IMG/VR virus record: IMGVR_UViG_2531839666_000019
Reading direction: 5' to 3' (one strand)
Length of the DNA: 38,533 nucleotides
Source: a virus
Lineage: Duplodnaviria; Heunggongvirae; Uroviricota; Caudoviricetes
Position numbers and translations under genes: made by a program. The notes beneath the pieces were generated by a model. That model saw nothing but the letters and a program-made list of their open reading frames with translations. It did not search any database and was not told where the DNA came from. Of this stretch, positions 1 to 34,915 are shown piece after piece. The stretch's first letter is position 1. Every line of letters begins with the position of its first letter.

Positions 1-405
1 TCATTGGTTTACTCCCACGTTAATTGCCGCCATTGCGCTTTGAGCAATATCCATGTCTTGTTCAACGCTACCGCCGCTGATGCCAAGCCCGCCAAGCAAT
101 TTTCCGTCACGCCAGAGGGGGAAGCCGCCACCAAAAGTGACGACTTTGCCTTGCATATGGCTTTCGAGCCCGTAAAGCGGCGCGCCGGGTTGCACGGTAT
201 CAGCAAGTTTGTGGGTTGCCGTTTTCATCGCCACGGCGGTCCAGGCTTTTTTCGGTGCCAGTTCACTGCTGACCAACAGGGCATCAGGCATCCGCCAGGT
301 AACACTTTCTGTTCCGTTGGCATCAACAATGCTGATGACAACGGGATGATGCGCCGCGCGATAAATGTACCAATTTCCGTGAGATAAATTACATCGCTGC
401 GGCAT
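1..405 (-). CDS. GlcG/DUF336-family (heme-binding-like) protein; flanking host gene or terminal cargo
   Basis: 134-aa ORF with motif FGGGFPLWRDGKLLGGLGISGGSVEQDMDIAQSA typical of GlcG/DUF336; stop codon is at bases 1-3 and ATG at 405. Confidence 0.55.
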   Translation of the reverse strand: MPQRCNLSHGNWYIYRAAHHPVVISIVDANGTESVTWRMPDALLVSSELAPKKAWTAVAMKTATHKLADTVQPGAPLYGLESHMQGKVVTFGGGFPLWRDGKLLGGLGISGGSVEQDMDIAQSAMAAINVGVNQ

Positions 406-424
406 TTCAATATCTGAAAAAGAA

Positions 425-997
425 TTACAACTTAGCTTGAGTTTGGAGTTCCTCTACAGGGTGATAACGATAAATCGTCGATATACCGATATCGTAAATA
501 ATTGCCAACTGTTTCCTGCTATAGCCATTTTTGATCAGCCTTGCTATTTGTTCATGTTGCTCTTTTGTCAGTTTCGGACGGCGTCCGCCAATACGCCCCT
601 GTGCACGTGCTGCCTCAAGTCCGGCCAGTGTTCGTTCAACTATTAATTCGCGCTCCATTTCCGCTAAAGCCCCCATGACGTGAAAAAAGAAACGTCCCAT
701 GGGTGTTGACGTATCAATGCTGTCTGTAAGACTACGGAAATTAACCCCTTTTCCCCGCAGTTCCTCAATAAGAGTGATAAGGTGTTTCATGCTTCTGCCC
801 AGCCTATCCAGCTTCCAGACAACGAGCGTATCTCCTTCTGATAACGTTCTGAGCAGCTTTTTCAATCCCGGTCGGGCTGACTTTGTTCCGCTGATTTTAT
901 CCTCAAAAATCAGTTCACATCCTGCGCAGTTCAGTGCGTTTCGTTGTAAATCTGTATTCTGGTCATTTGTTGACACACGAATGTAGCCAATTTGCAT
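425..997 (-). CDS. serine recombinase, DNA invertase of the Gin/Pin/Hin/Cin family
   Basis: Protein begins MQIGYIRVSTNDQNTDLQRNAL (catalytic Ser in the YIRVST motif), has a resolvase core and C-terminal HTH, and is very close in pattern to phage Mu Gin; start trimmed from ORF-track 1192 to the ATG at 997. Confidence 0.9.
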   Translation of the reverse strand: MQIGYIRVSTNDQNTDLQRNALNCAGCELIFEDKISGTKSARPGLKKLLRTLSEGDTLVVWKLDRLGRSMKHLITLIEELRGKGVNFRSLTDSIDTSTPMGRFFFHVMGALAEMERELIVERTLAGLEAARAQGRIGGRRPKLTKEQHEQIARLIKNGYSRKQLAIIYDIGISTIYRYHPVEELQTQAKL

Positions 998-1051
998 GAA
1001 AAATATCCTCTTTGTTTTGTTAAAAATACATAGCTGGTATAGGTGGGAGTT

Positions 1052-1079
1052 AAGACGAAAACGTTGGTTTGGGGGAAGG
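1052..1079 (+). other. gix/hix-like crossover site A (variable left half, TT core at 1064-1065, conserved right half GGTTTGGGGGAAGG)
   Basis: Sequence GACGAAAACG-TT-GGTTTGGGGGAAGG matches the AAACC-NN-GGTTT architecture of Gin/Hin sites; the same right half recurs at sites B, C and, inverted, D. Confidence 0.7.
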
Positions 1080-1530
1080 CTCTGCACTACCTGTTGGTGT
1101 GCCTGTTCCGTGGCCGTCAGCCACACCGCCAGCAGGGTGGCTGAAATGTAACGGCGCAGCATTTTCTTCTGAAATGTACCCCAGGCTGGCAAAGGCTTAT
1201 CCGACCAATAAATTACCGGATTTACGGGGCGAATTTATCCGTGGCTGGGATGACGGACGAGGTATTGATGCAGGACGAGAGATACTTTCATTTCAGGAAG
1301 GCACTATCGTCTCCGGTTTTGATGATAATGATACTGGGGATATCAGTTCACTCAGCTCAACACAATACGGATTTGGTGACACTTTAACCTCTAATCAATG
1401 GGGGGCCATAAATGGCAAAAAGTGGATATTTGATGCATCCAGTAAAGGTGCCCAAAAATATGACTGGTGGGCTTATGTATCAGCTCGTCCGCGTAATATT
1501 GCATTTAATTACATCGTAAGAGCGGCATAG
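1066..1530 (+). CDS. silent alternative tail-fibre C-terminal cassette A (no ATG start; expressed only after inversion)
   Basis: Begins GEGSALPVGVPVPWPSATPPAGWLKCNGAAF, the same sequence that follows site D in the expressed tail fibre; ends with conserved RPRNIAFNYIVRAA; ORF-track start is TTG inside the gix site. Confidence 0.75.
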   Translation, partial: GLGEGSALPVGVPVPWPSATPPAGWLKCNGAAFSSEMYPRLAKAYPTNKLPDLRGEFIRGWDDGRGIDAGREILSFQEGTIVSGFDDNDTGDISSLSSTQYGFGDTLTSNQWGAINGKKWIFDASSKGAQKYDWWAYVSARPRNIAFNYIVRAA

Positions 1531-1551
1531 AAACGTTGGTTTGGGGGAAGG
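1524..1551 (+). other. gix/hix-like crossover site B
   Basis: ATAGAAACG-TT-GGTTTGGGGGAAGG, core at 1536-1537, immediately after the stop codon of cassette A. Confidence 0.7.
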
Positions 1552-1969
1552 CTCTGCACTGCCCGTTGGTGTGCCTGTTCCGTGGCCCTCAGCCACACCG
1601 CCAACAGGCTGGCTGAAATGTAACGGTGCAGTATTTTCTGCTGGGAAGTACCCCAAACTGGCACAGGCTTACCCCACCAATAAATTACCGGATTTACGGG
1701 GCGAATTTATTCGTGGCTGGGATGATGGACGTGGAGTGGACAATGGGCGAGCATTATTAAGCAGGCAGGAGGCTACAAATTTTTCTTATTACGGAGGTAA
1801 TTTCGATATTGGGTCTGGTCATTCAATCAATAACTATGACCAAATCGTTGACAACCAACCTGGATTCTCCCGTTTTTCATTTGCAGGTCCTTCGCGAGGC
1901 GATGGGGTTAATTTTGTGACCATTCGTCCTCGTAATATTGCGTTTAATTACATCGTAAGGGCAGCATGA
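1538..1969 (+). CDS. silent alternative tail-fibre C-terminal cassette B
   Basis: Same conserved N-terminal block and C-terminal RPRNIAFNYIVRAA with a different central region; starts in gix site B. Confidence 0.75.
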   Translation, partial: GLGEGSALPVGVPVPWPSATPPTGWLKCNGAVFSAGKYPKLAQAYPTNKLPDLRGEFIRGWDDGRGVDNGRALLSRQEATNFSYYGGNFDIGSGHSINNYDQIVDNQPGFSRFSFAGPSRGDGVNFVTIRPRNIAFNYIVRAA

Positions 1970-1990
1970 AAACGTTGGTTTGGGGGAAGG
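1963..1990 (+). other. gix/hix-like crossover site C
   Basis: CATGAAAACG-TT-GGTTTGGGGGAAGG, core at 1975-1976, immediately after the stop codon of cassette B. Confidence 0.7.
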
Positions 1991-2483
1991 CTCTGCACTA
2001 CCTGTTGGTGTGCCTGTTCCGTGGCCGTCAGCCACACCGCCAGCAGGGTGGCTGAAATGTAACGGCGCAGCATTTTCTTCTGAAATGTACCCCTGGCTGG
2101 CAAAGGCTTATCCGACCAATAAATTACCGGATTTACGGGGCGAATTTATCCGTGGCTGGGATGACGGACGGGGAATTGATTCAGGGCGTTTCTTGCTTAA
2201 TGCACAACCACATTCGGTTATGGATCATACTCACTATATGGAGTTATGGACCGGTGAAGGGCTTGCTGCAAACAGCACCCGTGCAGGAACAAACCCTGGT
2301 ATACTGGCTACATACGGTGATGGCGGGATTGTTAAAACAGATGAGTCAGGTGTAAAAGTTCCATCTTCACTACGTGCTATTGGCACTCGTGGTGTTTATA
2401 GATTAGGTGCCAACGGAGGGAATACAGGAACGGAAAACCGCCCCCGTAATATTGCGTTTAACTATATTGTAAGGGCTACTTAA
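1977..2483 (+). CDS. silent alternative tail-fibre C-terminal cassette C
   Basis: Same conserved block (about 125 bp identical to the expressed copy) and C-terminal motif; stop overlaps the tfa start (TAATG at 2481-2485). Confidence 0.75.
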   Translation, partial: GLGEGSALPVGVPVPWPSATPPAGWLKCNGAAFSSEMYPWLAKAYPTNKLPDLRGEFIRGWDDGRGIDSGRFLLNAQPHSVMDHTHYMELWTGEGLAANSTRAGTNPGILATYGDGGIVKTDESGVKVPSSLRAIGTRGVYRLGANGGNTGTENRPRNIAFNYIVRAT

Positions 2484-3100
2484 TGAATAATGCTGCTGCA
2501 GTACTTGATCAGAATGGTATCGCTATAACTGCAGGCGATATTACCGTTTATAACTACGATGCTGAAAACCGTGAATATCTCTCTGCCACTGTTGAATATC
2601 TCGCTTATGGTGTTGGAATTCCGGCTCACTCATGCATTGACGCGCCACCAGAAAAACGCCCCGGCTTCGCTGTCTGTCGTGATACCGACCAGAACATCTG
2701 GAAATATGTTCCAGACCACAGAGGCGAAACGGTTTACAGCACAGAGAATGGTAACGCTGTGCAAATCACACAGCCGGGAGATTACCCTTCAGATACGACG
2801 GTGAAACAGCCAGCTACCATCTATGATGTCTGGGATGGTGAGACCTGGGTGACAGATACGAGACGACAGCACGCAGCAGAACTGGAAGCTGCCGGAGCGC
2901 ATCGTCAGCAACTTGAGGAACAGGCAATGGCATCTGTTGAGCTTATTAATCTCAAACTACGAGCCGGACGCCGATTGACGCCCCAGGAGACGGAAAAACT
3001 AAACGCCGTGCTTGATTTCATAGATGCGCTTAATGCGACTGACATCAGCACTGCACCGGATATCAACTGGCCGGAAATGCCTCTGGCAGCAGCCAGTTGA
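2483..3100 (+). CDS. tail fibre assembly protein (Tfa/U-like chaperone)
   Basis: 205-aa protein with the typical Tfa N-terminal region; lies directly downstream of cassette C and converges on the expressed tail fibre. Confidence 0.75.
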   Translation: MNNAAAVLDQNGIAITAGDITVYNYDAENREYLSATVEYLAYGVGIPAHSCIDAPPEKRPGFAVCRDTDQNIWKYVPDHRGETVYSTENGNAVQITQPGDYPSDTTVKQPATIYDVWDGETWVTDTRRQHAAELEAAGAHRQQLEEQAMASVELINLKLRAGRRLTPQETEKLNAVLDFIDALNATDISTAPDINWPEMPLAAAS

Positions 3101-3106
3101 GTATAA

Positions 3107-4075
3107 TTAAGCCGCCCTCACGATATAGTTAAATGCAATATTGCGGGGGCGAGTTTCACTACCACCAGTGTTACCAATACTTCCTCGTGAATGAAGCGTT
3201 GGTGATGGAATCAAACTCCCTCCTGTATTTGCAGCATCAAGTCCCCGGCCTTGTGAATATGTTTTTTTGAAAATTGTGGCCAACTCCCATTCATCCTTTG
3301 TGTCATACCCATCGTTAGCTACAACAATATGGCGGTGTTTTTCCAGCATCCCAGTTTGAAAGCTCAATAAAGCACGTCCTGCATCAATCCCTCGCCCGTC
3401 ATCCCAGCCACGGATAAATTCGCCCCGTAAATCCGGTAATTTATTGGTCGGATAAGCCTTTGCCAGCCAGGGGTACATTTCAGAAGAAAATGCTGCGCCG
3501 TTACATTTCAGCCACCCTGCTGGTGGTGTTGCTGAGGGCCACGGAACGGGCACACCAACGGGCAGCGCAGAGCCTTCCCCCAAACCAAGGTTTTTGACAA
3601 ACAGCGCAGGATCAGGAATATCTGCGCCGTTCTGGTCTTTAGCCAGCTTTTCCGCCAGCTTGTTCAGTACCGTAGTCGCAAAGTTTGGATCATTACCGAG
3701 AGCGTCAGCCAGCTCTTTAAGCGTATCCAGTGTCTCAGGGGCGCTGCCTGCAAGCGCCGCAAGTGCTTTGGCCACAAACTCCGTCGTCGCCAGCTTTTTG
3801 CTGTTATCGCCATTTGCAGGTGTAGGTGCTGTTGGTGTGCCGGTGAATGCCGGACTGGCTTTCGGTGCATACTGGGCATGCGGGTCTGCTGCCGCGATGT
3901 GTTTCGCAAGGTCAGCCCCGCCTTTTTCAACCTGTTGCTTCAGGTACAGCGTGCGGCTGGCCAGTTGTTTACCCTGACGGTTAGAAATTCCGTCAGGCCC
4001 GCCCAGAACGGGGTCAGAGACCTCAATCTGGTAGATGCCGTCTTCCCACTGTGGGGTTTCAGGTAGATTTGCCAT
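3107..4075 (-). CDS. tail fibre protein (constant N-terminal part plus currently expressed variable C-terminal cassette D, 3107-3586)
   Basis: 322-aa protein; N-terminal tail-fibre region followed after site D by the GEGSALPVGV block and the RPRNIAFNYIVRAA terminus. Confidence 0.85.
   Translation of the reverse strand: MANLPETPQWEDGIYQIEVSDPVLGGPDGISNRQGKQLASRTLYLKQQVEKGGADLAKHIAAADPHAQYAPKASPAFTGTPTAPTPANGDNSKKLATTEFVAKALAALAGSAPETLDTLKELADALGNDPNFATTVLNKLAEKLAKDQNGADIPDPALFVKNLGLGEGSALPVGVPVPWPSATPPAGWLKCNGAAFSSEMYPWLAKAYPTNKLPDLRGEFIRGWDDGRGIDAGRALLSFQTGMLEKHRHIVVANDGYDTKDEWELATIFKKTYSQGRGLDAANTGGSLIPSPTLHSRGSIGNTGGSETRPRNIAFNYIVRAA
3573..3600 (-). other. gix/hix-like crossover site D, inverted relative to A-C, inside the expressed tail-fibre gene
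   Basis: Plus strand reads CCTTCCCCCAAACC-AA-GGTTTTTGACAA, a near-palindrome resembling hixL; core at 3587-3588; encodes FVKNLGLGEG of the tail fibre. Confidence 0.75.
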
Positions 4076-4077
4076 AA

Positions 4078-4656
4078 TTAACTGCTCCCGTGGTTGTAAC
4101 TACCGTCATAACGGGTAGTACTGTTGTATCGAATGGCGACAGACTGATATTCCAGGCTTGCCAGATGGCAGCGAGCCGGAGCAAAGGCAGCGAGCGTCTG
4201 ACGTAACAGCGCTGCCTGATCATTAGTGATGGGCTGTTGAAGGATGACCCGATAGACTGCCCAGGCTTGTGCATCGCCATGGACGAAAAGTCCGTTGTAA
4301 CTGTGTTTACCGTCGTAGCCGATCTGCCCCGTACCTTCTATCAGCTCTACTTCGCCAAAGCCAAAACGGCGGATAATTTCCCGGATTGACCACGGCGTTC
4401 CTTTATAGCGGTGTAGCTCGATAGCGGATTTGATAAGCATGCGGCGTACATCGTCCGATTCCGCCAGTTCCCAGCCATCGCCGAACAACGAGAACTGCTC
4501 GCCCAGCCATGGCAGCGCGGAACTGTCGACGATATCGACGAGACAGACCATCAGTACGCTCAGGTCGATGTTATCCAGCCGTTCGGCCAGTCTTCCCAGC
4601 GTTTTGAGACTGATATCACCCTCAAGCGGTGGCGGTAGTCGTAGCGCCTCAGCCAT
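4078..4656 (-). CDS. tail/baseplate protein, Mu gp48-like (DUF2313/YmfQ-like)
   Basis: 192-aa ORF in the conserved position between baseplate J-like and tail fibre genes. Confidence 0.6.
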   Translation of the reverse strand: MAEALRLPPPLEGDISLKTLGRLAERLDNIDLSVLMVCLVDIVDSSALPWLGEQFSLFGDGWELAESDDVRRMLIKSAIELHRYKGTPWSIREIIRRFGFGEVELIEGTGQIGYDGKHSYNGLFVHGDAQAWAVYRVILQQPITNDQAALLRQTLAAFAPARCHLASLEYQSVAIRYNSTTRYDGSYNHGSS

Positions 4657-5752
4657 CGGACACCCCTGTCACGTTAAGAGTGATTGCCGTACAGTTTGCC
4701 CATTCGTTTTCTGCAACCACCCGCAGTGCCGGTGTCACCAGTTCAACCTGGTACACCCCGGAAACGGACAATGCACTGATAATCTGGCTGGGGACAATAT
4801 CGCGTCCCAGCGTGGCGGCACGTGATGCCACCCAGTTCTGTATGGCGCTGTTAGCGTTGTCCTTTACCGACATTGCATCCTGATCACGATAGATCGTAAT
4901 CCTGGCTTCAATGGTGTAATCCACCTGAACAGGTGTTTTAGCCCGCACGGTATCAGTGAGTGGTCTGACTTTTTCGTCAGAACAGAAACTCTCTACCAGA
5001 GTGAGGATACTGCTGTCTGGCAGACCAGTGCTGAGCAGTGGATACAGCTCGACAGTACCGGGAACGGGAGAAAGAACAGCGACGTCGACAATACTGGGAT
5101 GCGCCCCCATGGCATGAAAACGGTATGCACCACGGCTTCCGGCATTGGTGAATGACTCCGGGGCCAGCCTGATACGCTCCCGGAGTCGGTCATTGTCTTC
5201 CTGCTCTGAACCGCCAGTGCTGGCCGTCAGATTGGTCACCAGCAGGTCAACGTTATCAATCTCATCAAGCAGCTGACTGACCTGAGCCGGTTGCCAGCCG
5301 TTGCCAGAGGTACCCGGCTCAGTACAGGTGGCAGGGGCATTGACCAGTTGCAAACCGGCCTTCAGCACTACATCTGTATCGGTGGCAAAAATCACGCTGT
5401 CGGAAGCGCTGACGCGGGTGCCTGCCGGGATCAGCACATCAATGGCCAGTGCCTCATCCACAGAGAACTGAAGTGTGGTGGTGGCAGGCTGCGCGGGAAG
5501 GCGGTATACACCAACCAGTTCTCCGAGGTAATCAATCATCGGCTCCCGGGAAAAGGCGACCAGATTCAGCTTCGCCGCCTCCTGTACCGCCACCCTGACC
5601 AGCATTTCGCGATAGGCCCACAGATCTATTAGCAGACGTTCTGCCTGTGCCGGGTACAACGTTTTGCCGGTATCCGCTTCATATTTCGCAATCATTTCTG
5701 CCGTGATTTTATCGGCATCGAGTTCAATAAAATCGGGTTCTGTCAGCGCCAT
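4649..5752 (-). CDS. baseplate J-like protein (Mu gp47-like)
   Basis: 367-aa ORF, position and size typical of baseplate J family; overlaps neighbours by a few bases in operon fashion. Confidence 0.75.
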   Translation of the reverse strand: MALTEPDFIELDADKITAEMIAKYEADTGKTLYPAQAERLLIDLWAYREMLVRVAVQEAAKLNLVAFSREPMIDYLGELVGVYRLPAQPATTTLQFSVDEALAIDVLIPAGTRVSASDSVIFATDTDVVLKAGLQLVNAPATCTEPGTSGNGWQPAQVSQLLDEIDNVDLLVTNLTASTGGSEQEDNDRLRERIRLAPESFTNAGSRGAYRFHAMGAHPSIVDVAVLSPVPGTVELYPLLSTGLPDSSILTLVESFCSDEKVRPLTDTVRAKTPVQVDYTIEARITIYRDQDAMSVKDNANSAIQNWVASRAATLGRDIVPSQIISALSVSGVYQVELVTPALRVVAENEWANCTAITLNVTGVSDG

Positions 5753-6090: not shown

Positions 6091-6161
6091 GGGGGCAGTA
6101 TTGCCCCAGTAAGAAAAGAACGATATTAAAGGGATTTAAAAAGGAGTTATTGATACGTTTG

Positions 6162-7037
6162 TTAAATTACGAAAACCTTGACGATAAGTTCTCCGTCTTT
6201 AGAAACTCTCTTCCCCTCAAGATCAGATTTCAGCCCCTCAGAATTAGTAATAAGCTGGTTCGGATCGTAGATGACACACCAGAGATTTTTGCAATCAGAG
6301 TGCCGACGATAATGCTCTATATCGATAATAAGTTCATCGCCGATTTTCTTTGCATGAGAACGATCACGAACAATTTTGGTTTCCAGTACTAATTTATGCG
6401 CAGGTAACAAAAAATCCATTCGAGTACTTGAACCAGCGTAACTTGGAGTAAACTCTTCTGGGCGGATGTCCTGAACCCATGGTCTGAGCAATGCATGGAG
6501 AAGGTCTTGCACGTCATATTCATTGCTAAAAGATAATGACTGGCTTCCTTTTCGCCTATGAGTAAGTGGATGCATTGCTCGCTGTAAGCCTTTGACCAGC
6601 CTTTCCAGTAAGTTCTCAACTTTTTCTGGCATTACTGGCTGTTGATAAGTAATTATGGTCTCTGGGTAATCCATATTGTGTGACGGGATGTGGCCTTCAG
6701 GCAACACTCGACCAAAACGATAATATCTAAGTCCATTCTCTTGTAACACAGCTTCAATTCTGTCTCGTTTTTCCTTCCATTCTGCATATTCGGGAGTACC
6801 TTCTTTTGGAGGTAAATCCATAAACTCCTCAATTACTCCGCCCAGAACTGCCAGACTATCTGTATCTGGATCTTGCCCTGCAAGAAATAACCAGTCTTTC
6901 CATTTTGTACTATGAGATCCTGCCGGAGGGTTTCCTGGTGCTCCCGAAGTAAGAAATAACGTATCTAAAGCTGCATGAGAGCCTGAGTTAGCAATGACAT
7001 CGCCAACTACTTTACATAAGGATCTTGATAACCGCAT
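6162..7037 (-). CDS. inserted accessory gene in the baseplate block; candidate PD-(D/E)xK-fold nuclease-like protein
   Basis: 291-aa ORF, visibly AT-richer than flanking genes, flanked by 71-bp and 81-bp spacers; C-terminal region contains D-x11-E-x-K (MDFLLPAHKLVLETKIV). Confidence 0.5.
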   Translation of the reverse strand: MRLSRSLCKVVGDVIANSGSHAALDTLFLTSGAPGNPPAGSHSTKWKDWLFLAGQDPDTDSLAVLGGVIEEFMDLPPKEGTPEYAEWKEKRDRIEAVLQENGLRYYRFGRVLPEGHIPSHNMDYPETIITYQQPVMPEKVENLLERLVKGLQRAMHPLTHRRKGSQSLSFSNEYDVQDLLHALLRPWVQDIRPEEFTPSYAGSSTRMDFLLPAHKLVLETKIVRDRSHAKKIGDELIIDIEHYRRHSDCKNLWCVIYDPNQLITNSEGLKSDLEGKRVSKDGELIVKVFVI

Positions 7038-12848: not shown

Positions 12849-12910
12849 ACTCCTTTGTAAATTCAGAGCAGTATGTCTGGCGGTGGACGTGACGGATATT
12901 AAAGGAGATT

Positions 12911-26212: not shown

Positions 26213-26342
26213 GTGTGTCTCCTTGTTTGGTGGAGACAGCATCACAAATGTGGCGGGATACGGATTTTAAAGCGCGTTATAAGTGTTCGCAGAGGGAAGC
26301 GACCAGAATGGTCGCACACAAAACATAGGGGAGGCAAGCACA

Positions 26343-27561: not shown

Positions 27562-28173
27562 TCAAAAATCTGGAGAAGGTATATCTATCTGACCGACGTT
27601 TCGTAACCACATCTCTTGCTTTGTTTCTTTATTGGTTCGGGCGATATCATTAGCATTGTATCTGCATGTTTTAACCGCAACCTCACGAACTCGTGCTATA
27701 GGAGTATTTGTGTAGAATTTAAGATCTTCCTCTACCGCTCGTATGGCGATAAGCCCTCCACTCTGAAAACCGCTGGTTACTTTTAAAAGATCAACTCCTT
27801 GGTTATAAACGGCATTACATACGTTAGGGAACTCATCTTCTACAGTTTTGGGGATCATCAGCATATCAGGAAGACCCTGTAACACGTTATCTTCCTTTGG
27901 CCTCCATGCCCTTCCCAAAAAAGCTGTTATAGGTTGTGGTGTAGAAAGAAATGCCAATTCTATATAAAACAAACCACTGTAGTGATCGCGTAACGAATAG
28001 ACTAGTAAATGATCTTTTCCAGTTTTACTTGCATTGCTAAGTTTTATATCAAATGGTTTTTTCTGGTACTTAAGCAATCCATCAACTCCCGCATAATAAT
28101 GCTTTGAAACAGCAACAGAAAGTTGATGTACTTGGTTCGGATAATCTGTTCTATATCGTTTAATTAGCCCCAT
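27562..28173 (-). CDS. hypothetical protein, AT-rich cargo gene
   Basis: 203-aa ORF, visibly AT-richer than the phage backbone; no recognisable motif. Confidence 0.5.
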   Translation of the reverse strand: MGLIKRYRTDYPNQVHQLSVAVSKHYYAGVDGLLKYQKKPFDIKLSNASKTGKDHLLVYSLRDHYSGLFYIELAFLSTPQPITAFLGRAWRPKEDNVLQGLPDMLMIPKTVEDEFPNVCNAVYNQGVDLLKVTSGFQSGGLIAIRAVEEDLKFYTNTPIARVREVAVKTCRYNANDIARTNKETKQEMWLRNVGQIDIPSPDF

Positions 28174-28284: not shown

Positions 28285-28788
28285 TTATTGATAGTGTTTT
28301 ATGTTCAGATAATGCCCGATGACTTTGTCATGCAGCTCCACCGATTTTGAGAACGACAGCGACTTCCGTCCCAGCCGTGCCAGGTGCTGCCTCAGATTCA
28401 GGTTATGCCGCTCAATTCGCTGCGTATATCGCTTGCTGATTACGTGCAGCTTTCCCTTCAGGCGGGATTCATACAGCGGCCAGCCATCCGTCATCCATAT
28501 CACCACGTCAAAGGGTGACAGCAGGCTCATAAGACGCCCCAGCGTCGCCATAGTGCGTTCACCGAATACGTGCGCAACAACCGTCTTCCGGAGCCTGTCA
28601 TACGCGTAAAACAGCCAGCGCTGGCGCGATTTAGCCCCGACATAGCCCCACTGTTCGTCCATTTCAGCGCAGACAATCACATCACTGCCCGGCTGTATGC
28701 GCGAAGTTACCGACTGCGGCCTGAGTTTTTTAAGTGACGTAAAGTCGTGTTGAGGCCAACGCCCATAATGCGGGCTGTTGCCCGGCAT
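28285..28788 (-). CDS. insB: IS1 InsB (transposase reading frame, normally expressed as InsAB by frameshift)
   Basis: 167-aa ORF matching IS1 InsB. Confidence 0.9.
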
Positions 28789-29010: not shown

Positions 29011-29985
29011 CTAAATCAGTAAGTTGGCAGCATCACCTTGTTGGTCAAGTAATAGAGCTCTACATGGGGCGGTCAAAACACGGGCATAACGACCATCGGG
29101 GTTTATGTTGATGTAACAAGTTTTCCCTTTAACACCATAAGATTCAGGTATTATTGCCTGTGTAGACACCGTGAATTTAAGGGTATGCCAGCCCGATTTT
29201 TGCTTGTAGCTTGAAACCGAATGGAAATCATCTGAGTACTTATTTAACCCTGGAAACATGCTGCGTAATGCTGGGATGGAATCTTCTATTATTTTGTCGT
29301 TGGTTTTAATGTTAAAAACGCTGGTTTCAGTAGATGCTACTGCTTTAGCATTTCCCCATTTACCAGCGAACACAATCATTCCCACGAAAAATATTGCGAC
29401 AAGAACTAACGCTCCCCCCAACACTACTACATGAGGCTTCCGGCTTCTGGTTGGTACAGTCGCGACTGATTTTGCCCCGCTGTCCGATGGAGGTGATAGA
29501 GTTTTACTCTCATCACGAATATTCAGCAGATCATCAAAATAACCAAACACAGCCTGCAACTGCTCTTTGTCCAGGCCTTTAAGATGGGTTGTACCGAAAT
29601 GCTTCAGACAGTATCTGTCACGGTCAAGACGATACCTAGGGTCAGTAAGCACCATTATTTTGCTGACCAGAAGATTACAGTCCTTCATATTCTGGATCTG
29701 TTGTGCATATCTCTGGAGGATCTCAACCGCACCATGATAATCAGCCGCAGTCATTTCATTAACTGTTTTGGTATTAAGTTTCGTGTGGATCGTCATCCAT
29801 AGTTCGCGCTTACTTTCCCCCAGATCAACCAATTCATCCATCAATCTGTGTAAATCGCGTTTTTGCAGCAACGAAATTGGTTGCTGGGCAGAGGGAAGTA
29901 TGTCAGCAGAATAGTTATGAATGGTAACATCACCGCTGACAACGTTACCCACATCTCCGTTAACTGTTTGCTTCTCTTTACTCAT
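29011..29985 (-). CDS. single-pass membrane protein co-transcribed with the repressor; 3' end replaced by IS1 sequence
   Basis: 324-aa ORF; N-terminal GDVGNVVSGDVTIHNY motif, TM helix VVVLGGALVLVAIFFVGMIVFAG; last 8 codons and stop lie inside IS1; without IS1 the frame would continue leftward to a stop near 28194. Confidence 0.6.
   Translation of the reverse strand: MSKEKQTVNGDVGNVVSGDVTIHNYSADILPSAQQPISLLQKRDLHRLMDELVDLGESKRELWMTIHTKLNTKTVNEMTAADYHGAVEILQRYAQQIQNMKDCNLLVSKIMVLTDPRYRLDRDRYCLKHFGTTHLKGLDKEQLQAVFGYFDDLLNIRDESKTLSPPSDSGAKSVATVPTRSRKPHVVVLGGALVLVAIFFVGMIVFAGKWGNAKAVASTETSVFNIKTNDKIIEDSIPALRSMFPGLNKYSDDFHSVSSYKQKSGWHTLKFTVSTQAIIPESYGVKGKTCYININPDGRYARVLTAPCRALLLDQQGDAANLLI
29038..29074. 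repeat. 37-bp direct repeat, right copy flanking IS1
   Basis: Identical to 28233-28269. Confidence 0.9.
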
Positions 29986-31968: not shown

Positions 31969-33738
31969 ATGAATGCTGCCCTGACTGAACGACTGGTTTA
32001 TGTCGCCCGCGCGGCACGTGACGCGGGGCATGGTAAACGCGGTGCAATATACGACGCTGCCTGTGCTGAACTTGGCATGTCCCGCGCCACTCTGCTGCGC
32101 AGGCTGAAGGAGGTATCTGTGACTGATAAACGCAAAAAACGCGCCGATGCCGGGCGCAGCGCCCTGACCCGCGACGAAGCCGCGCTGATATCTGCCACAC
32201 TGCGTGAGGCCACCCGCAAGAACGGTAAGCGTCTCTATTCCATCGCAGATGCAGTGGAAACCCTGCGGGCTAACGGCTTTATCTCCGCAGGCAGAACAGA
32301 TGAAACCACCGGTGAGTTTTTCCCGTTGTCCGAAGATGCCATCAGTCGTGCCTTGCGTAACTATGGCCTGCACCCGGAACAACTGGATGCCCCTGCGCCG
32401 CATACCGAAGTGGCCAGTCTGCATCCCAATCACGTCTGGCAGATTGATGCCTCGCTCTGCACGCTTTACTACCTGAGCAATGGACACAAAGGGCTGCAGG
32501 TGATGGACAGCGCGAAGTTCTACAAGAATAAACCCGCTAACCTTGCCCGTATCGCCAGTGACCGCGTGTGGAGTTACGAGATTACCGACCATGCCAGCGG
32601 CTGGATTTACGTTGAGTATGTGACGGGTGCGGAATCCGGTGAGAACCTGTGTTCTGTGCTTATCAACGCCATGCAGGAGCGTGGCGGCGCAGACGTGCTG
32701 CACGGCGTGCCGAAAATACTCTATCTCGACCCCGGCTCGGCAAACACCGCGGGTATGACGAAAAACATGTGCCGCTCACTGGGCATCGACCTGATAGCGC
32801 ACAAGCCGCATAACGCCCGCGCCACCGGACAGGTGGAAAAGGCGCGTGACATTATCGAACGCAAGCTGGAGCCGGGTCTGAAATTCCGGCCGGTTCACAG
32901 TCTGGAAGAACTCAACGCGCTGGCCGCGAAATGGCGTAGCCACTTTAACGCAACAGCTGTTCACAGCCGCCACGGTAAAACCCGCACGGATATCTGGCTG
33001 AAGATTACTGCTGAGCAGCTGAAAAAAGCGCCTTCCGTTGAGGTATGCCGTGAACTGGCTGTGGCGACACCAGAACTCCGCAAAGTCACGCCAAAACTTC
33101 GTGTCTCGTTCCGGGGCACTGAATTTGACGTATCAACGGTACCGGGCGTACTGGTTGGTGAAAAACTGATGATTACCCGTAACCCATGGCGCAGCGATGT
33201 GGCACAGGTGGTTCTGACCGGTGAGGACGGCCACGAGACGTTCTTCCTGGTCGAAGAGGTCAGAAAGAACGAGTTTGGCTTTGCTGAAGGCGCGGCGGTA
33301 TTTGGCGAAAGTTACAAAGCCCTGCCGGAAACACCGGCACAGACGGCGGCAAAAGAAACCGAAGCGCTGGTCACCGGTACAGACAACGCCGCAGATGCAG
33401 CTGCCGCACGCAAGGCGAAGGCGCTGCCGTTCGGCGGGCGGCTTGACCCGTATAAACATATTGATGACGCCACACTTCCGGCCTGTATACCGAAGCGCGG
33501 TCAGGTCTCTGATGTACGCAGACCGCGCACTGAACAACGTCCCATGACTCATGTGGAGGCCGCGAAAGCCCTGCGCGATAAGTTCAGCGCCGACGGCCTT
33601 ACCTGGACGCCGGAACATTACCGCCAGTTAACGGCACAGTACCCGGACGGCGTACCGGAAGCCGCACTGGATGAAGTAATGGCCACGCTGACCACGCCGG
33701 CCCGCAGCAGCGTTATCAGCATTGTTAACGGCAACTGA
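31969..33738 (+). CDS. DDE transposase (Mu A-like, integrase-core family)
   Basis: 589-aa protein with DDE-type residues in HVWQIDAS and YLDPGSAN; followed by an overlapping AAA+ partner gene. Confidence 0.8.
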   Translation: MNAALTERLVYVARAARDAGHGKRGAIYDAACAELGMSRATLLRRLKEVSVTDKRKKRADAGRSALTRDEAALISATLREATRKNGKRLYSIADAVETLRANGFISAGRTDETTGEFFPLSEDAISRALRNYGLHPEQLDAPAPHTEVASLHPNHVWQIDASLCTLYYLSNGHKGLQVMDSAKFYKNKPANLARIASDRVWSYEITDHASGWIYVEYVTGAESGENLCSVLINAMQERGGADVLHGVPKILYLDPGSANTAGMTKNMCRSLGIDLIAHKPHNARATGQVEKARDIIERKLEPGLKFRPVHSLEELNALAAKWRSHFNATAVHSRHGKTRTDIWLKITAEQLKKAPSVEVCRELAVATPELRKVTPKLRVSFRGTEFDVSTVPGVLVGEKLMITRNPWRSDVAQVVLTGEDGHETFFLVEEVRKNEFGFAEGAAVFGESYKALPETPAQTAAKETEALVTGTDNAADAAAARKAKALPFGGRLDPYKHIDDATLPACIPKRGQVSDVRRPRTEQRPMTHVEAAKALRDKFSADGLTWTPEHYRQLTAQYPDGVPEAALDEVMATLTTPARSSVISIVNGN

Positions 33739-34915
33739 GGAGGGAAACATGCTGGTACTGAAGCAGCAACTGAAAGAGGCCCGTATTCCACAGGCGGTGG
33801 TGGCGAGAGCTGTCGATGTTTCTGAGGCCACGCTGGCCCAGATTGTGAATCATAACGCGTGGCCCCGCACCAGCCCCGGAGAAGTGCGCCGGCGTCTTGC
33901 GTCCTGGCTGGAAAGTCAGGGGATTGATACAGCGAAGAGTTTTGATGCTGTACAGGGCGCGGCCACTCCCCGTACAGCGGGTACCACAGATAAAACGAGC
34001 CTCAGTGAGGAAGAGAATATGTTACTCAAAAAACAGGTGTTATTCCCGGCAACCAAAAAAGCGTTTGGTCTTTTCCGTGACCCGTTCGCCGACGAAGCCA
34101 TGCAGGGTTCTGATGATGTGTTCACCACCCCGGACATTCGCTACGTGCGTGAGGCGTTGTACCAGACAGCCCGTCATGGTGGGTTTATGGCCGTCATCGG
34201 TGAGTCCGGTGCGGGTAAATCCACGCTGCGCCGCGACCTGACTGAACGTATCAACCGCGAGAATGCGCCGGTAATTGTTATCGAGCCATACATCATCGCT
34301 ATGGAAGACAACGATGTGAAAGGGAAAACCCTGAAGGCAGCAGCTATTGCCGAAGCCATTATCAGTACCATCGCACCACTGGAAAGCATCAGACGCAGTC
34401 AGGACGCCCGCTTTCGCCAGTTGCATCGCGTCCTGAAAGACAGCAGCCAGGCGGGGTTCAGCCACGTTCTGGTGATTGAGGAGGCCCACAGTCTGCCCAT
34501 TCCGACACTGAAACACCTCAAACGCTTTTTTGAGCTGGAGTCCGGTTTCAAAAAACTGCTGTCCATCGTGCTGATTGGCCAGCCGGAACTGGCGACAAAA
34601 CTGTCTGAACGCAATATGGAAGTCCGTGAAGTCGTTCAGCGCTGTGAGGTGGTCGAACTTCTGCCTCTGGACAATAACCTTGAAGAGTTTCTGACGTTCA
34701 AACTGCAACGGGCAGGTAAACAACTGACGGACATTATGGACGCCAGTGCAGTGGATGCCATACGTGCCCGCCTGAGCAATCCGGGAAGTCATCGTAAAAA
34801 TATGGTCAGCCTGTTGTATCCGCTGGCCGTCAGTAACCTGGTGATAGCCGCCATGAATCTGGCCGCTGAAATCGGGGTTCCACAGGTCAACGCTGACGTT
34901 GTCAAAGGGGTTTAA
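33722..34915 (+). CDS. transposition ATPase (Mu B/TniB-like AAA+)
   Basis: Walker A VIGESGAGKST and Walker B HVLVIEEAH; N-terminal HTH. Confidence 0.8.
   Translation: MLTATEEGNMLVLKQQLKEARIPQAVVARAVDVSEATLAQIVNHNAWPRTSPGEVRRRLASWLESQGIDTAKSFDAVQGAATPRTAGTTDKTSLSEEENMLLKKQVLFPATKKAFGLFRDPFADEAMQGSDDVFTTPDIRYVREALYQTARHGGFMAVIGESGAGKSTLRRDLTERINRENAPVIVIEPYIIAMEDNDVKGKTLKAAAIAEAIISTIAPLESIRRSQDARFRQLHRVLKDSSQAGFSHVLVIEEAHSLPIPTLKHLKRFFELESGFKKLLSIVLIGQPELATKLSERNMEVREVVQRCEVVELLPLDNNLEEFLTFKLQRAGKQLTDIMDASAVDAIRARLSNPGSHRKNMVSLLYPLAVSNLVIAAMNLAAEIGVPQVNADVVKGV

Follow-up and report, generated by a model that had tools for sequence, protein, structure and literature searches.

We describe here the tail-fibre switch in a 38.5-kb stretch of DNA from a Mu-like Escherichia coli prophage (IMG/VR record IMGVR_UViG_2531839666_000019; the whole stretch is called the window), in which four alternative C-terminal fibre cassettes, A to D, are accompanied by one tail-fibre assembly gene, tfa. 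A single tfa at the point where cassettes converge is the standard design of Min-type multi-cassette collar-fibre shufflons. We give roughly even chances to the reading that, within this design, Tfa is made only with the cassette preceding its gene while the other heads assemble without a cis-encoded Tfa. The invertase recombines four hix-like sites, so that any of the four C-terminal cassettes can be joined to the constant fibre N-terminus. In the preferred reading, Tfa would be made solely by translational coupling to the cassette upstream of its gene. Cassettes without their own tfa, including D at present, would trimerise into working fibres without cis-encoded Tfa, and Tfa may then be an aid, or an accessory tied to a cassette, that a small collar-type tip can do without. 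The parts of the locus are as follows, with expectation values (E) for Pfam domains.

425-997, minus strand: serine DNA invertase of the Gin/Hin/Cin/Pin/Min family (Resolvase, E 4e-51; HTH_7, E 1e-13)
998-1056: fixed border from the invertase start to the first crossover site, holding the conserved block TGGTATAGGT
1057-1079, plus strand: crossover site A, hix/gix-like, GAAAACG-TT-GGTTTGGGGGAAGG, central TT at 1064-1065, read from the sequence
1069-1530, plus strand: silent cassette A, collar and head without HxH, no tfa of its own (Collar, E 4e-15)
1528-1551, plus strand: crossover site B, abutting the stop codon of A, from inverted repeats and sequence reading
1541-1969, plus strand: silent cassette B, collar and head without HxH, no tfa of its own (Collar, E 3e-15)
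1967-1990, plus strand: crossover site C, abutting the stop codon of B, from inverted repeats and sequence reading
1980-2483, plus strand: silent cassette C, collar and HxH head (DHTHY) (Collar, E 2e-14)
2483-3100, plus strand: tfa, of the lambda Tfa / e14 TfaE type, 205 amino acids (aa) (Caudo_TAP, E 2e-26)
3107-4075, minus strand: expressed tail-fibre gene with cassette D, product of 322 aa, Collar in the D part
3107-3592, minus strand: cassette D, collar and HxH head (KHRHI), now fused to the constant part (Collar, E 6e-14)
3563-3590, minus strand: crossover site D, TTGTCAAAAACC-TT-GGTTTGGGGGAAGG, inverted relative to sites A, B and C
3593-4075, minus strand: constant N-terminal fibre part, 3′ of a P2 gpI-like gene (4078-4656)

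Open reading frames (ORFs), coordinates and domains agree with the preliminary description in placing tfa behind cassette C and convergent on the fibre stop at 3107. The ATG of tfa overlaps the TAA of C (TAATG), C being the sole cassette of the window coupled in cis to tfa, and the stop codons of tfa and the fibre gene are 6 nt apart (3101-3106). Hidden Markov models built here for both Tfa subfamilies detect no second tfa in the 38.5-kb window, confirming one assembly gene for four cassettes; D, as had been noted, has no co-oriented assembly gene downstream, tfa lying on the plus strand and the fibre gene on the minus strand. The silent cassettes A, B and C lack a start codon. The invertase, a catalytic domain with a C-terminal HTH, is encoded on the same strand as the fibre gene and adjoins the invertible DNA, and the border next to it is conserved over three invertase sub-lineages. 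Three pairs of inverted repeats (220-232 nt, 85-95%) join the beginning of D to those of A, B and C, site A lying inside the 220-nt repeat at 95%. Each repeat holds the hix-like core AAAAC(C/G)-TT-GGTTTGGGGGAAGG (AAAAC(C/G)-TT-GGTTT); the crossover sites are inverted, of the ~26-bp type, and each is an imperfect dyad centred on an asymmetric dinucleotide.

Two inward-facing cassette ends occur on one segment alone, that bounded by sites C and D. All isomers are therefore built of two inward-running cassette chains, which start at the fibre border and at the invertase border and meet at the C-tfa / D junction. From this topology it follows that C is always made with Tfa, D never, and A or B in half of their isomers. 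Four sites and four cassettes give 12 possible isomers, with tfa antisense to the fibre gene in 6, and D can never be co-oriented with tfa in the window architecture. The earlier proposal that inversion brings tfa behind the new fibre is correct for a single inversion of D with A, B or C, but not for multi-step isomers, three of which were found with A expressed and tfa antisense (L016, L019, L064). Across the 13 one-tfa loci with at least two cassettes, tfa is antisense to the fibre gene in eight and sense in five; the eight express D (5), A (2) or a head of another type (1).

Inversion is active in nature, and the predicted isomers exist. E. coli FEA3 and DEF10 share the prophage and its insertion site, and the two copies differ only in segment order, which is H-A / B / C-tfa / <D in FEA3 and H-A / C-tfa / <D<B in DEF10. 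Strain CFIAFB20190167 has the insertion site of the window, but with A and B exchanged. The constant fibre part is 100% identical among isomers with other heads.

We then asked how common the arrangement is, using 80 IMG/VR loci and E. coli relatives. Exactly one tfa of ~200 aa is present in 11 of the 12 complete loci with at least three collar cassettes, and the sole exception is a palindromic duplicate. The asymmetry, which had been called unusual, is indeed unusual when set against Mu, P1 and e14, but it is normal within the multi-cassette class. Relatives carry 3-9 cassettes. In the IncY P1-like phage-plasmid L169 (NZ_CP026725.1, 6005-12969) there are seven cassettes to one tfa, and the convergent topology is that of the window, with tfa placed behind six silent cassettes and facing a 974-aa S gene. 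The module of this IncY plasmid recurs in about 200 plasmids, and its recombinase is 95% identical in aa sequence to the invertase at 425-997. A single tfa is also found in two-cassette relatives such as L004 (C-tfa / D) and phage KP12. The same prophage backbone occurs in addition with a classical layout, with an assembly gene on each side (L007, L032), and loci of a 70%-identity invertase lineage, which has another border, always carry two tfa genes.

The exceptional locus, L080 (4092-8503 of an IMG/VR contig), holds a palindromic duplicate of the cassette-tfa-D unit and hence two tfa copies; this is either a mixed-isomer assembly artefact or a real duplication.

Are the cassettes without their own tfa functional? 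A tfa directly follows 0/8 cassettes of the A cluster, 0/11 of the B cluster, 9/9 of the C cluster and 26/56 D-type heads, the 26 having their own co-oriented TfaE-like gene in e14-type loci and the other 30 having none. D heads are virtually identical with or without tfa behind them. For D copies without their own tfa (21 distinct sequences) the ratio of nonsynonymous to synonymous substitution (dN/dS) is 0.046 at a dS of 0.38, and for cassette clusters never found with tfa, including A and B, it is 0.12-0.22. The tfa-less D copies are also more diverse than those with tfa and are therefore not recent decaying copies. That D is never co-oriented with tfa and is under strong purifying selection argues strongly against dead D-state fibres, which, judged from the sequences, are very probably functional. 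An 81% relative of C (cluster cl6) has tfa behind it in 0/8 copies and is the expressed head of the IncY plasmid, where tfa is antisense. The presence of tfa behind a cassette is not a property of the head type.

Phages with the same type of fibre and no tfa exist. Two Rahnella P2-like prophages have the gene order J-I-H(collar)-sheath-tube, with no room for tfa. One head (L150, Rahnella laticis), the only fibre tip of its phage, shares 77% identity with cassette A; the second shares 74% with a head that is accompanied by tfa in other loci. Further tfa-less collar fibres occur in Rosenbergiella, Photorhabdus and Xenorhabdus. Our inference is that D can do without Tfa and that tfa is not expressed in the D state. 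In the two Rahnella loci (L144, 7458-9782; L150, 7458-9772) the collar fibre gene H is followed by the sheath gene FI, without gpG/tfa. Phage PhiKM was considered as a tfa-less D-type phage and rejected, since only part of it is on record and its fibre gene breaks off 42 residues into the cassette.

The architecture of the cassettes bears on how D might fold. In an alignment of 14 cassette types, the first ~78 residues are invariant and are followed by a hypervariable middle of 50-110 residues and an invariant end, RPRNIAFNYIVRAA, which forms the last ~14 residues and is shared by D, A and B. The best PDB sequence match of D is the T4 gp37 tip (2XGF, E 1.5e-17), in two stretches, an N-terminal collar with the first HxH and a C-terminal NIAFNYIVR strand; the same comparison also links D to T4 gp12 and a further short tail fibre. 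In gp37, the collar domain D10 is built from residues 811-881 and 1010-1026, with the needle D11 inserted in it (PMC6957217). Each cassette is thus a complete collar domain of the T4 gp37/gp12 type with an inserted variable head, and the shared C-terminus is the closing strand of the collar and not an intramolecular chaperone. Folding of D without a dedicated chaperone is the best supported of the three explanations first offered, the others being assembly-deficient fibres and a promoter of tfa's own, but a self-chaperoning C-terminal region does not account for it: D ends in the RPRNIAFNYIVRAA collar strand as A and B do, its length class is shared, and its only Pfam domain is Collar.

An HxH motif is present in C (DHTHY) and in D (KHRHI, aligned with AHSHS of gp37) and not in A or B. 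Motifs behind the collar divide the heads into three classes, HxH (gp37, gp12), QGDAIRNI (the short tail fibre of PDB 9cuy) and neither (A, B), and each class includes members with and without an adjacent tfa in an alignment of the cassettes of the window and of L005-L049.

The window Tfa matches PF02413 (Caudo_TAP) with 93.1 bits over residues 80-200 (gathering cutoff 22.1) and is 62% identical to the TfaE-like protein of L007; a PDB sequence search with it returned no match. The gene is under purifying selection, and in the window and all ~200-aa relatives it starts directly behind a co-oriented fibre 3′ end. Irrespective of the head, the Tfa proteins encoded behind collar cassettes all belong to one group of ~200-aa proteins in which the N-terminal domain is conserved, and the window Tfa falls into this group together with genes annotated tfaE beside D-type heads in e14-type loci. 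In Mu it is the N-terminal domain of the assembly protein that binds the fibre (PMC9608196). In a comparison of 19 cassette/Tfa pairs, heads are on average 23% identical, collars 80% and Tfa N-terminal domains 57%. Identity of the N-terminal domain is correlated with that of the collar (rho 0.74) and not with that of the head (rho 0.14), a pattern that may partly reflect common descent. By this comparison Tfa would not be head-specific. The idea of Tfa as a private, head-specific chaperone of C is weakened accordingly by N-terminal identity that does not track head identity, and further by the 81% C-like head that never has tfa and the D-type heads that sometimes do.

Several points weigh against our preferred reading, in which heads other than the one before tfa assemble without it. 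The Tfa N-terminal domain tracks the shared collar and not the head, and a single Tfa, if made, could therefore suffice for all four cassettes. A ~200-aa Tfa lies directly behind a collar cassette in ~60 of ~75 Enterobacterales loci, and one tfa is kept in every complete shufflon. Receptor-binding proteins of the gp37 / Ur-lambda Stf family are reported to have a chaperone gene directly downstream in every case (PMC9659904), and folding of gp37 requires T4 gp38 (PMC6957217); in the window such a gp38/Tfa-like gene is present behind C, with none behind A, B or D. In 26 e14-type loci this same D head comes with a co-oriented and conserved TfaE-type gene of its own, which suggests that D benefits from Tfa. 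Lastly, promoter scans see sigma-70 consensus sites only, and an activator-dependent promoter could escape them.

A possible, if less probable, alternative is that Tfa is generic and made in every isomer. The shufflon would then be transcribed inward from both borders: the late operon would read in from the fibre, and an unrecognised promoter located in the border at 998-1056 from the invertase. At the meeting point of two chains, tfa would always be the last gene of one of them. A fuller form of this alternative, with two transcriptional entry points supplying head-independent Tfa in all 12 isomers as an economical single chaperone for an expandable head library, we regard as rather unlikely. 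The N-terminal domains that are conserved across heads and follow the collar fit a generic Tfa, as does the report that lambda Tfa can stand in for T4 gp38 (Montag 1989, in the form in which PMC9659904 cites it). So do the one tfa per complete shufflon at the convergence point, the two tfa genes that always accompany the different border of the 70%-identity lineage, and the presence of a Shine-Dalgarno-like AAGGG of its own 9 nt upstream of tfa. The conserved TGGTATAGGT block of the border, moreover, resembles an extended -10: by eye, the border contains at best a weak TTGTTA-15-TGgTATAGG.

The same border, however, is found in the two-tfa relatives L007 and L032, and the TATAGG lacks the critical final T, with a poor and variable -35. 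A consensus promoter scan found no sigma-70-like site on the plus strand of 400-4400 and no consensus sigma-70 promoter on either strand of the border. We also derived a candidate late-promoter motif, CCTTTAATATCCGT, which is unvalidated, from the gaps upstream of late gene blocks. It has 9 matches in the window with up to 3 mismatches, against 2.0 expected, and may be a late-promoter element of this BcepMu-like phage. The occurrences upstream of late gene blocks are these.

12892-12905, minus strand: CCTTTAATATCCGT
6119-6132, minus strand: CCTTTAATATCCGT
26260-26273, minus strand: CCTTTAATATCCGT

The motif has no match on the plus strand of 998-3100. In the window and its relatives tfa always sits 0-2 nt behind a cassette, and the earlier suggestion that it has its own promoter finds no support, the plus strand showing neither a sigma-70-like site nor the late motif and the border only its weak block. 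Transcription from the border would moreover have to cross upstream silent cassettes that have no start codon, leaving up to 1.4 kb of untranslated RNA before tfa. No terminator was found between the convergent tfa and fibre genes, so a late transcript through D probably reads on antisense through tfa. Prophages with a collar fibre and no tfa also speak against a generic requirement.

A more doubtful alternative is that tfa-less cassettes do need Tfa and receive it in trans from TfaE- or lambda-Tfa-type genes of other prophages (e14-like, lambdoid). In favour of this, an E. coli genome holds homologous invertase/cassette/tfa modules in a median of 2 places and a maximum of 18, D-like heads are found beside tfaE in ~400 E. 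coli genomes, and the N-terminal domains are conserved across heads. Supply of this kind would nevertheless need timely co-expression of another, usually silent, prophage, would make infectivity hang on the host genotype, and leaves the retention of exactly one shufflon tfa unexplained. Finally, isomers with antisense tfa, including the present D state, could be fibre-deficient or poorly infective at a cost tolerated as bet-hedging, in line with the reported dependence of the gp37/Stf family on gp38/Tfa (PMC9659904, PMC6957217) and the failure to find an independent tfa promoter, but this is very improbable given the strong purifying selection on D copies that are never co-oriented with tfa, their greater diversity than tfa-bearing D, which excludes recent decay, and the antisense tfa in 8 of the 13 one-tfa loci as assembled.

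The window system is a Gin/Min-type tail-fibre shufflon, a kind already known. Its closest known counterpart, from the 95% invertase identity and the same array topology in the IncY plasmid, is the Min-type system of p15B and P1-like relatives. The Min multiple-inversion system of plasmid p15B was reportedly described by Sandmeier and co-workers in 1990-92, and the likeness to p15B is one of description, not of compared sequence. Like the window, the Min and IncY P1-like systems have a serine invertase beside more than two crossover sites, overlapping invertible segments, and one constant 5′ fibre part with several alternative 3′ cassettes. In contrast to them, the window has the backbone of a transposable BcepMu-like myovirus and not of P1, a fibre of 322 aa instead of 974 aa, and four cassettes instead of six or seven.

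The G segment of Mu (Gin) and the C segment of P1 (Cin) share with the window the order of constant fibre part, invertible segment and co-oriented invertase, a crossover within the fibre coding sequence, and a Caudo_TAP gene behind the variable part. In Mu and P1, however, a pair of sites serves two variable parts, and each part comes with a U or U′ of its own, whereas the window has four sites, four parts and one assembly gene; its fibre tips are collar-type (gp37-like), those of Mu S-type. Cassette D is the collar head of the e14 type, known from the P segment of e14 with its invertase PinE (stfE-tfaE / tfaP-stfP), and D-head DNA matches ~400 E. coli genomes at 82-91%, beside tfaE. In e14-type loci a TfaE of its own is encoded right behind D, and a short Tfa belongs to the opposite cassette, whereas D in the window has none.

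With T4 gp37/gp38 and Ur-lambda Stf/Tfa the cassettes share D10 collar homology and the C-terminal NIAFNYIVR strand, and C and D also the HxH motif. The chaperone of gp37/Stf tips, of 184-207 aa, is encoded directly downstream (PMC9659904). Unlike these, three of the four window cassettes have no downstream chaperone gene, and the head insertion is far shorter than the gp37 needle (about 50-90 aa, with one HxH or none). Tail-fibre shufflons driven by Gin-type recombinases have been demonstrated experimentally in FR-phi of Enterobacter (PMC13418256) and in a P2-like prophage of enteropathogenic E. coli (EPEC; PMC4272514), with three or four variants coexisting in lysogen culture. FR-phi has been locked in each state by gin deletion; of the three isoforms so locked, only one was infective on the test host, a result interpreted as receptor specificity (PMC13418256). 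Assembly genes are not discussed in either paper (PMC13418256, PMC4272514). These systems resemble the window in multi-isoform fibre switching, a likeness by design and not by sequence comparison.

Collar tips of the gp37/Stf kind are favoured modules for engineering the host range of phages and tailocins, and the adjacent Tfa or gp38 is generally assumed to be needed. Here, purifying selection maintains many such tips across a large natural family of switches that have only a single chaperone gene, and some phages related to them lack such a gene altogether. Either small collar tips fold without Tfa, or one generic Tfa is expressed by an unrecognised route, and the choice between chaperone independence and hidden tfa expression is directly testable. 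Whichever holds, swappable receptor-binding cassettes would become simpler to design, and the growth of shufflons by the mere addition of bare cassettes would be explained. For annotation, a silent cassette without its own tfa should not be labelled a pseudogene.

The host element is a transposable BcepMu-like prophage with the shufflon at its end. Among its genes are those for an rve transposase (31969-33738) and a MuB-like AAA protein (33722-34915), and close relatives occupy four different chromosomal sites. In the window (1-425) the prophage end adjoins a GlcG/HbpS-family gene, which is annotated as truncated in strain CFIAFB20190167, where the insertion is identical (pdu locus). In other strains, members of this phage family lie at yehR, hycI and gsk, as expected from transposition. 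Baseplate genes lie upstream of the fibre gene, the first of them assigned by similarity only.

4649-5752, minus strand: baseplate J-like ORF, followed by further baseplate genes

An IS1 transposase ORF (28285-28788, minus strand) lies in a low-GC (guanine plus cytosine) accessory region between the late and early gene blocks; the ORFs beside it, 27562-28173 and 29011-29985, have no Pfam match, and a small ORF overlapping the transposase ORF runs on to 28982. Between the baseplate V and W genes is an ORF for a PD-(D/E)XK nuclease of the DpnII/MboI-like kind (6162-7037, minus strand; PF18742, E 4e-47; low GC, ~43%). Present in L003 and L007 and absent from L004, it looks like a moron, possibly related to defence.

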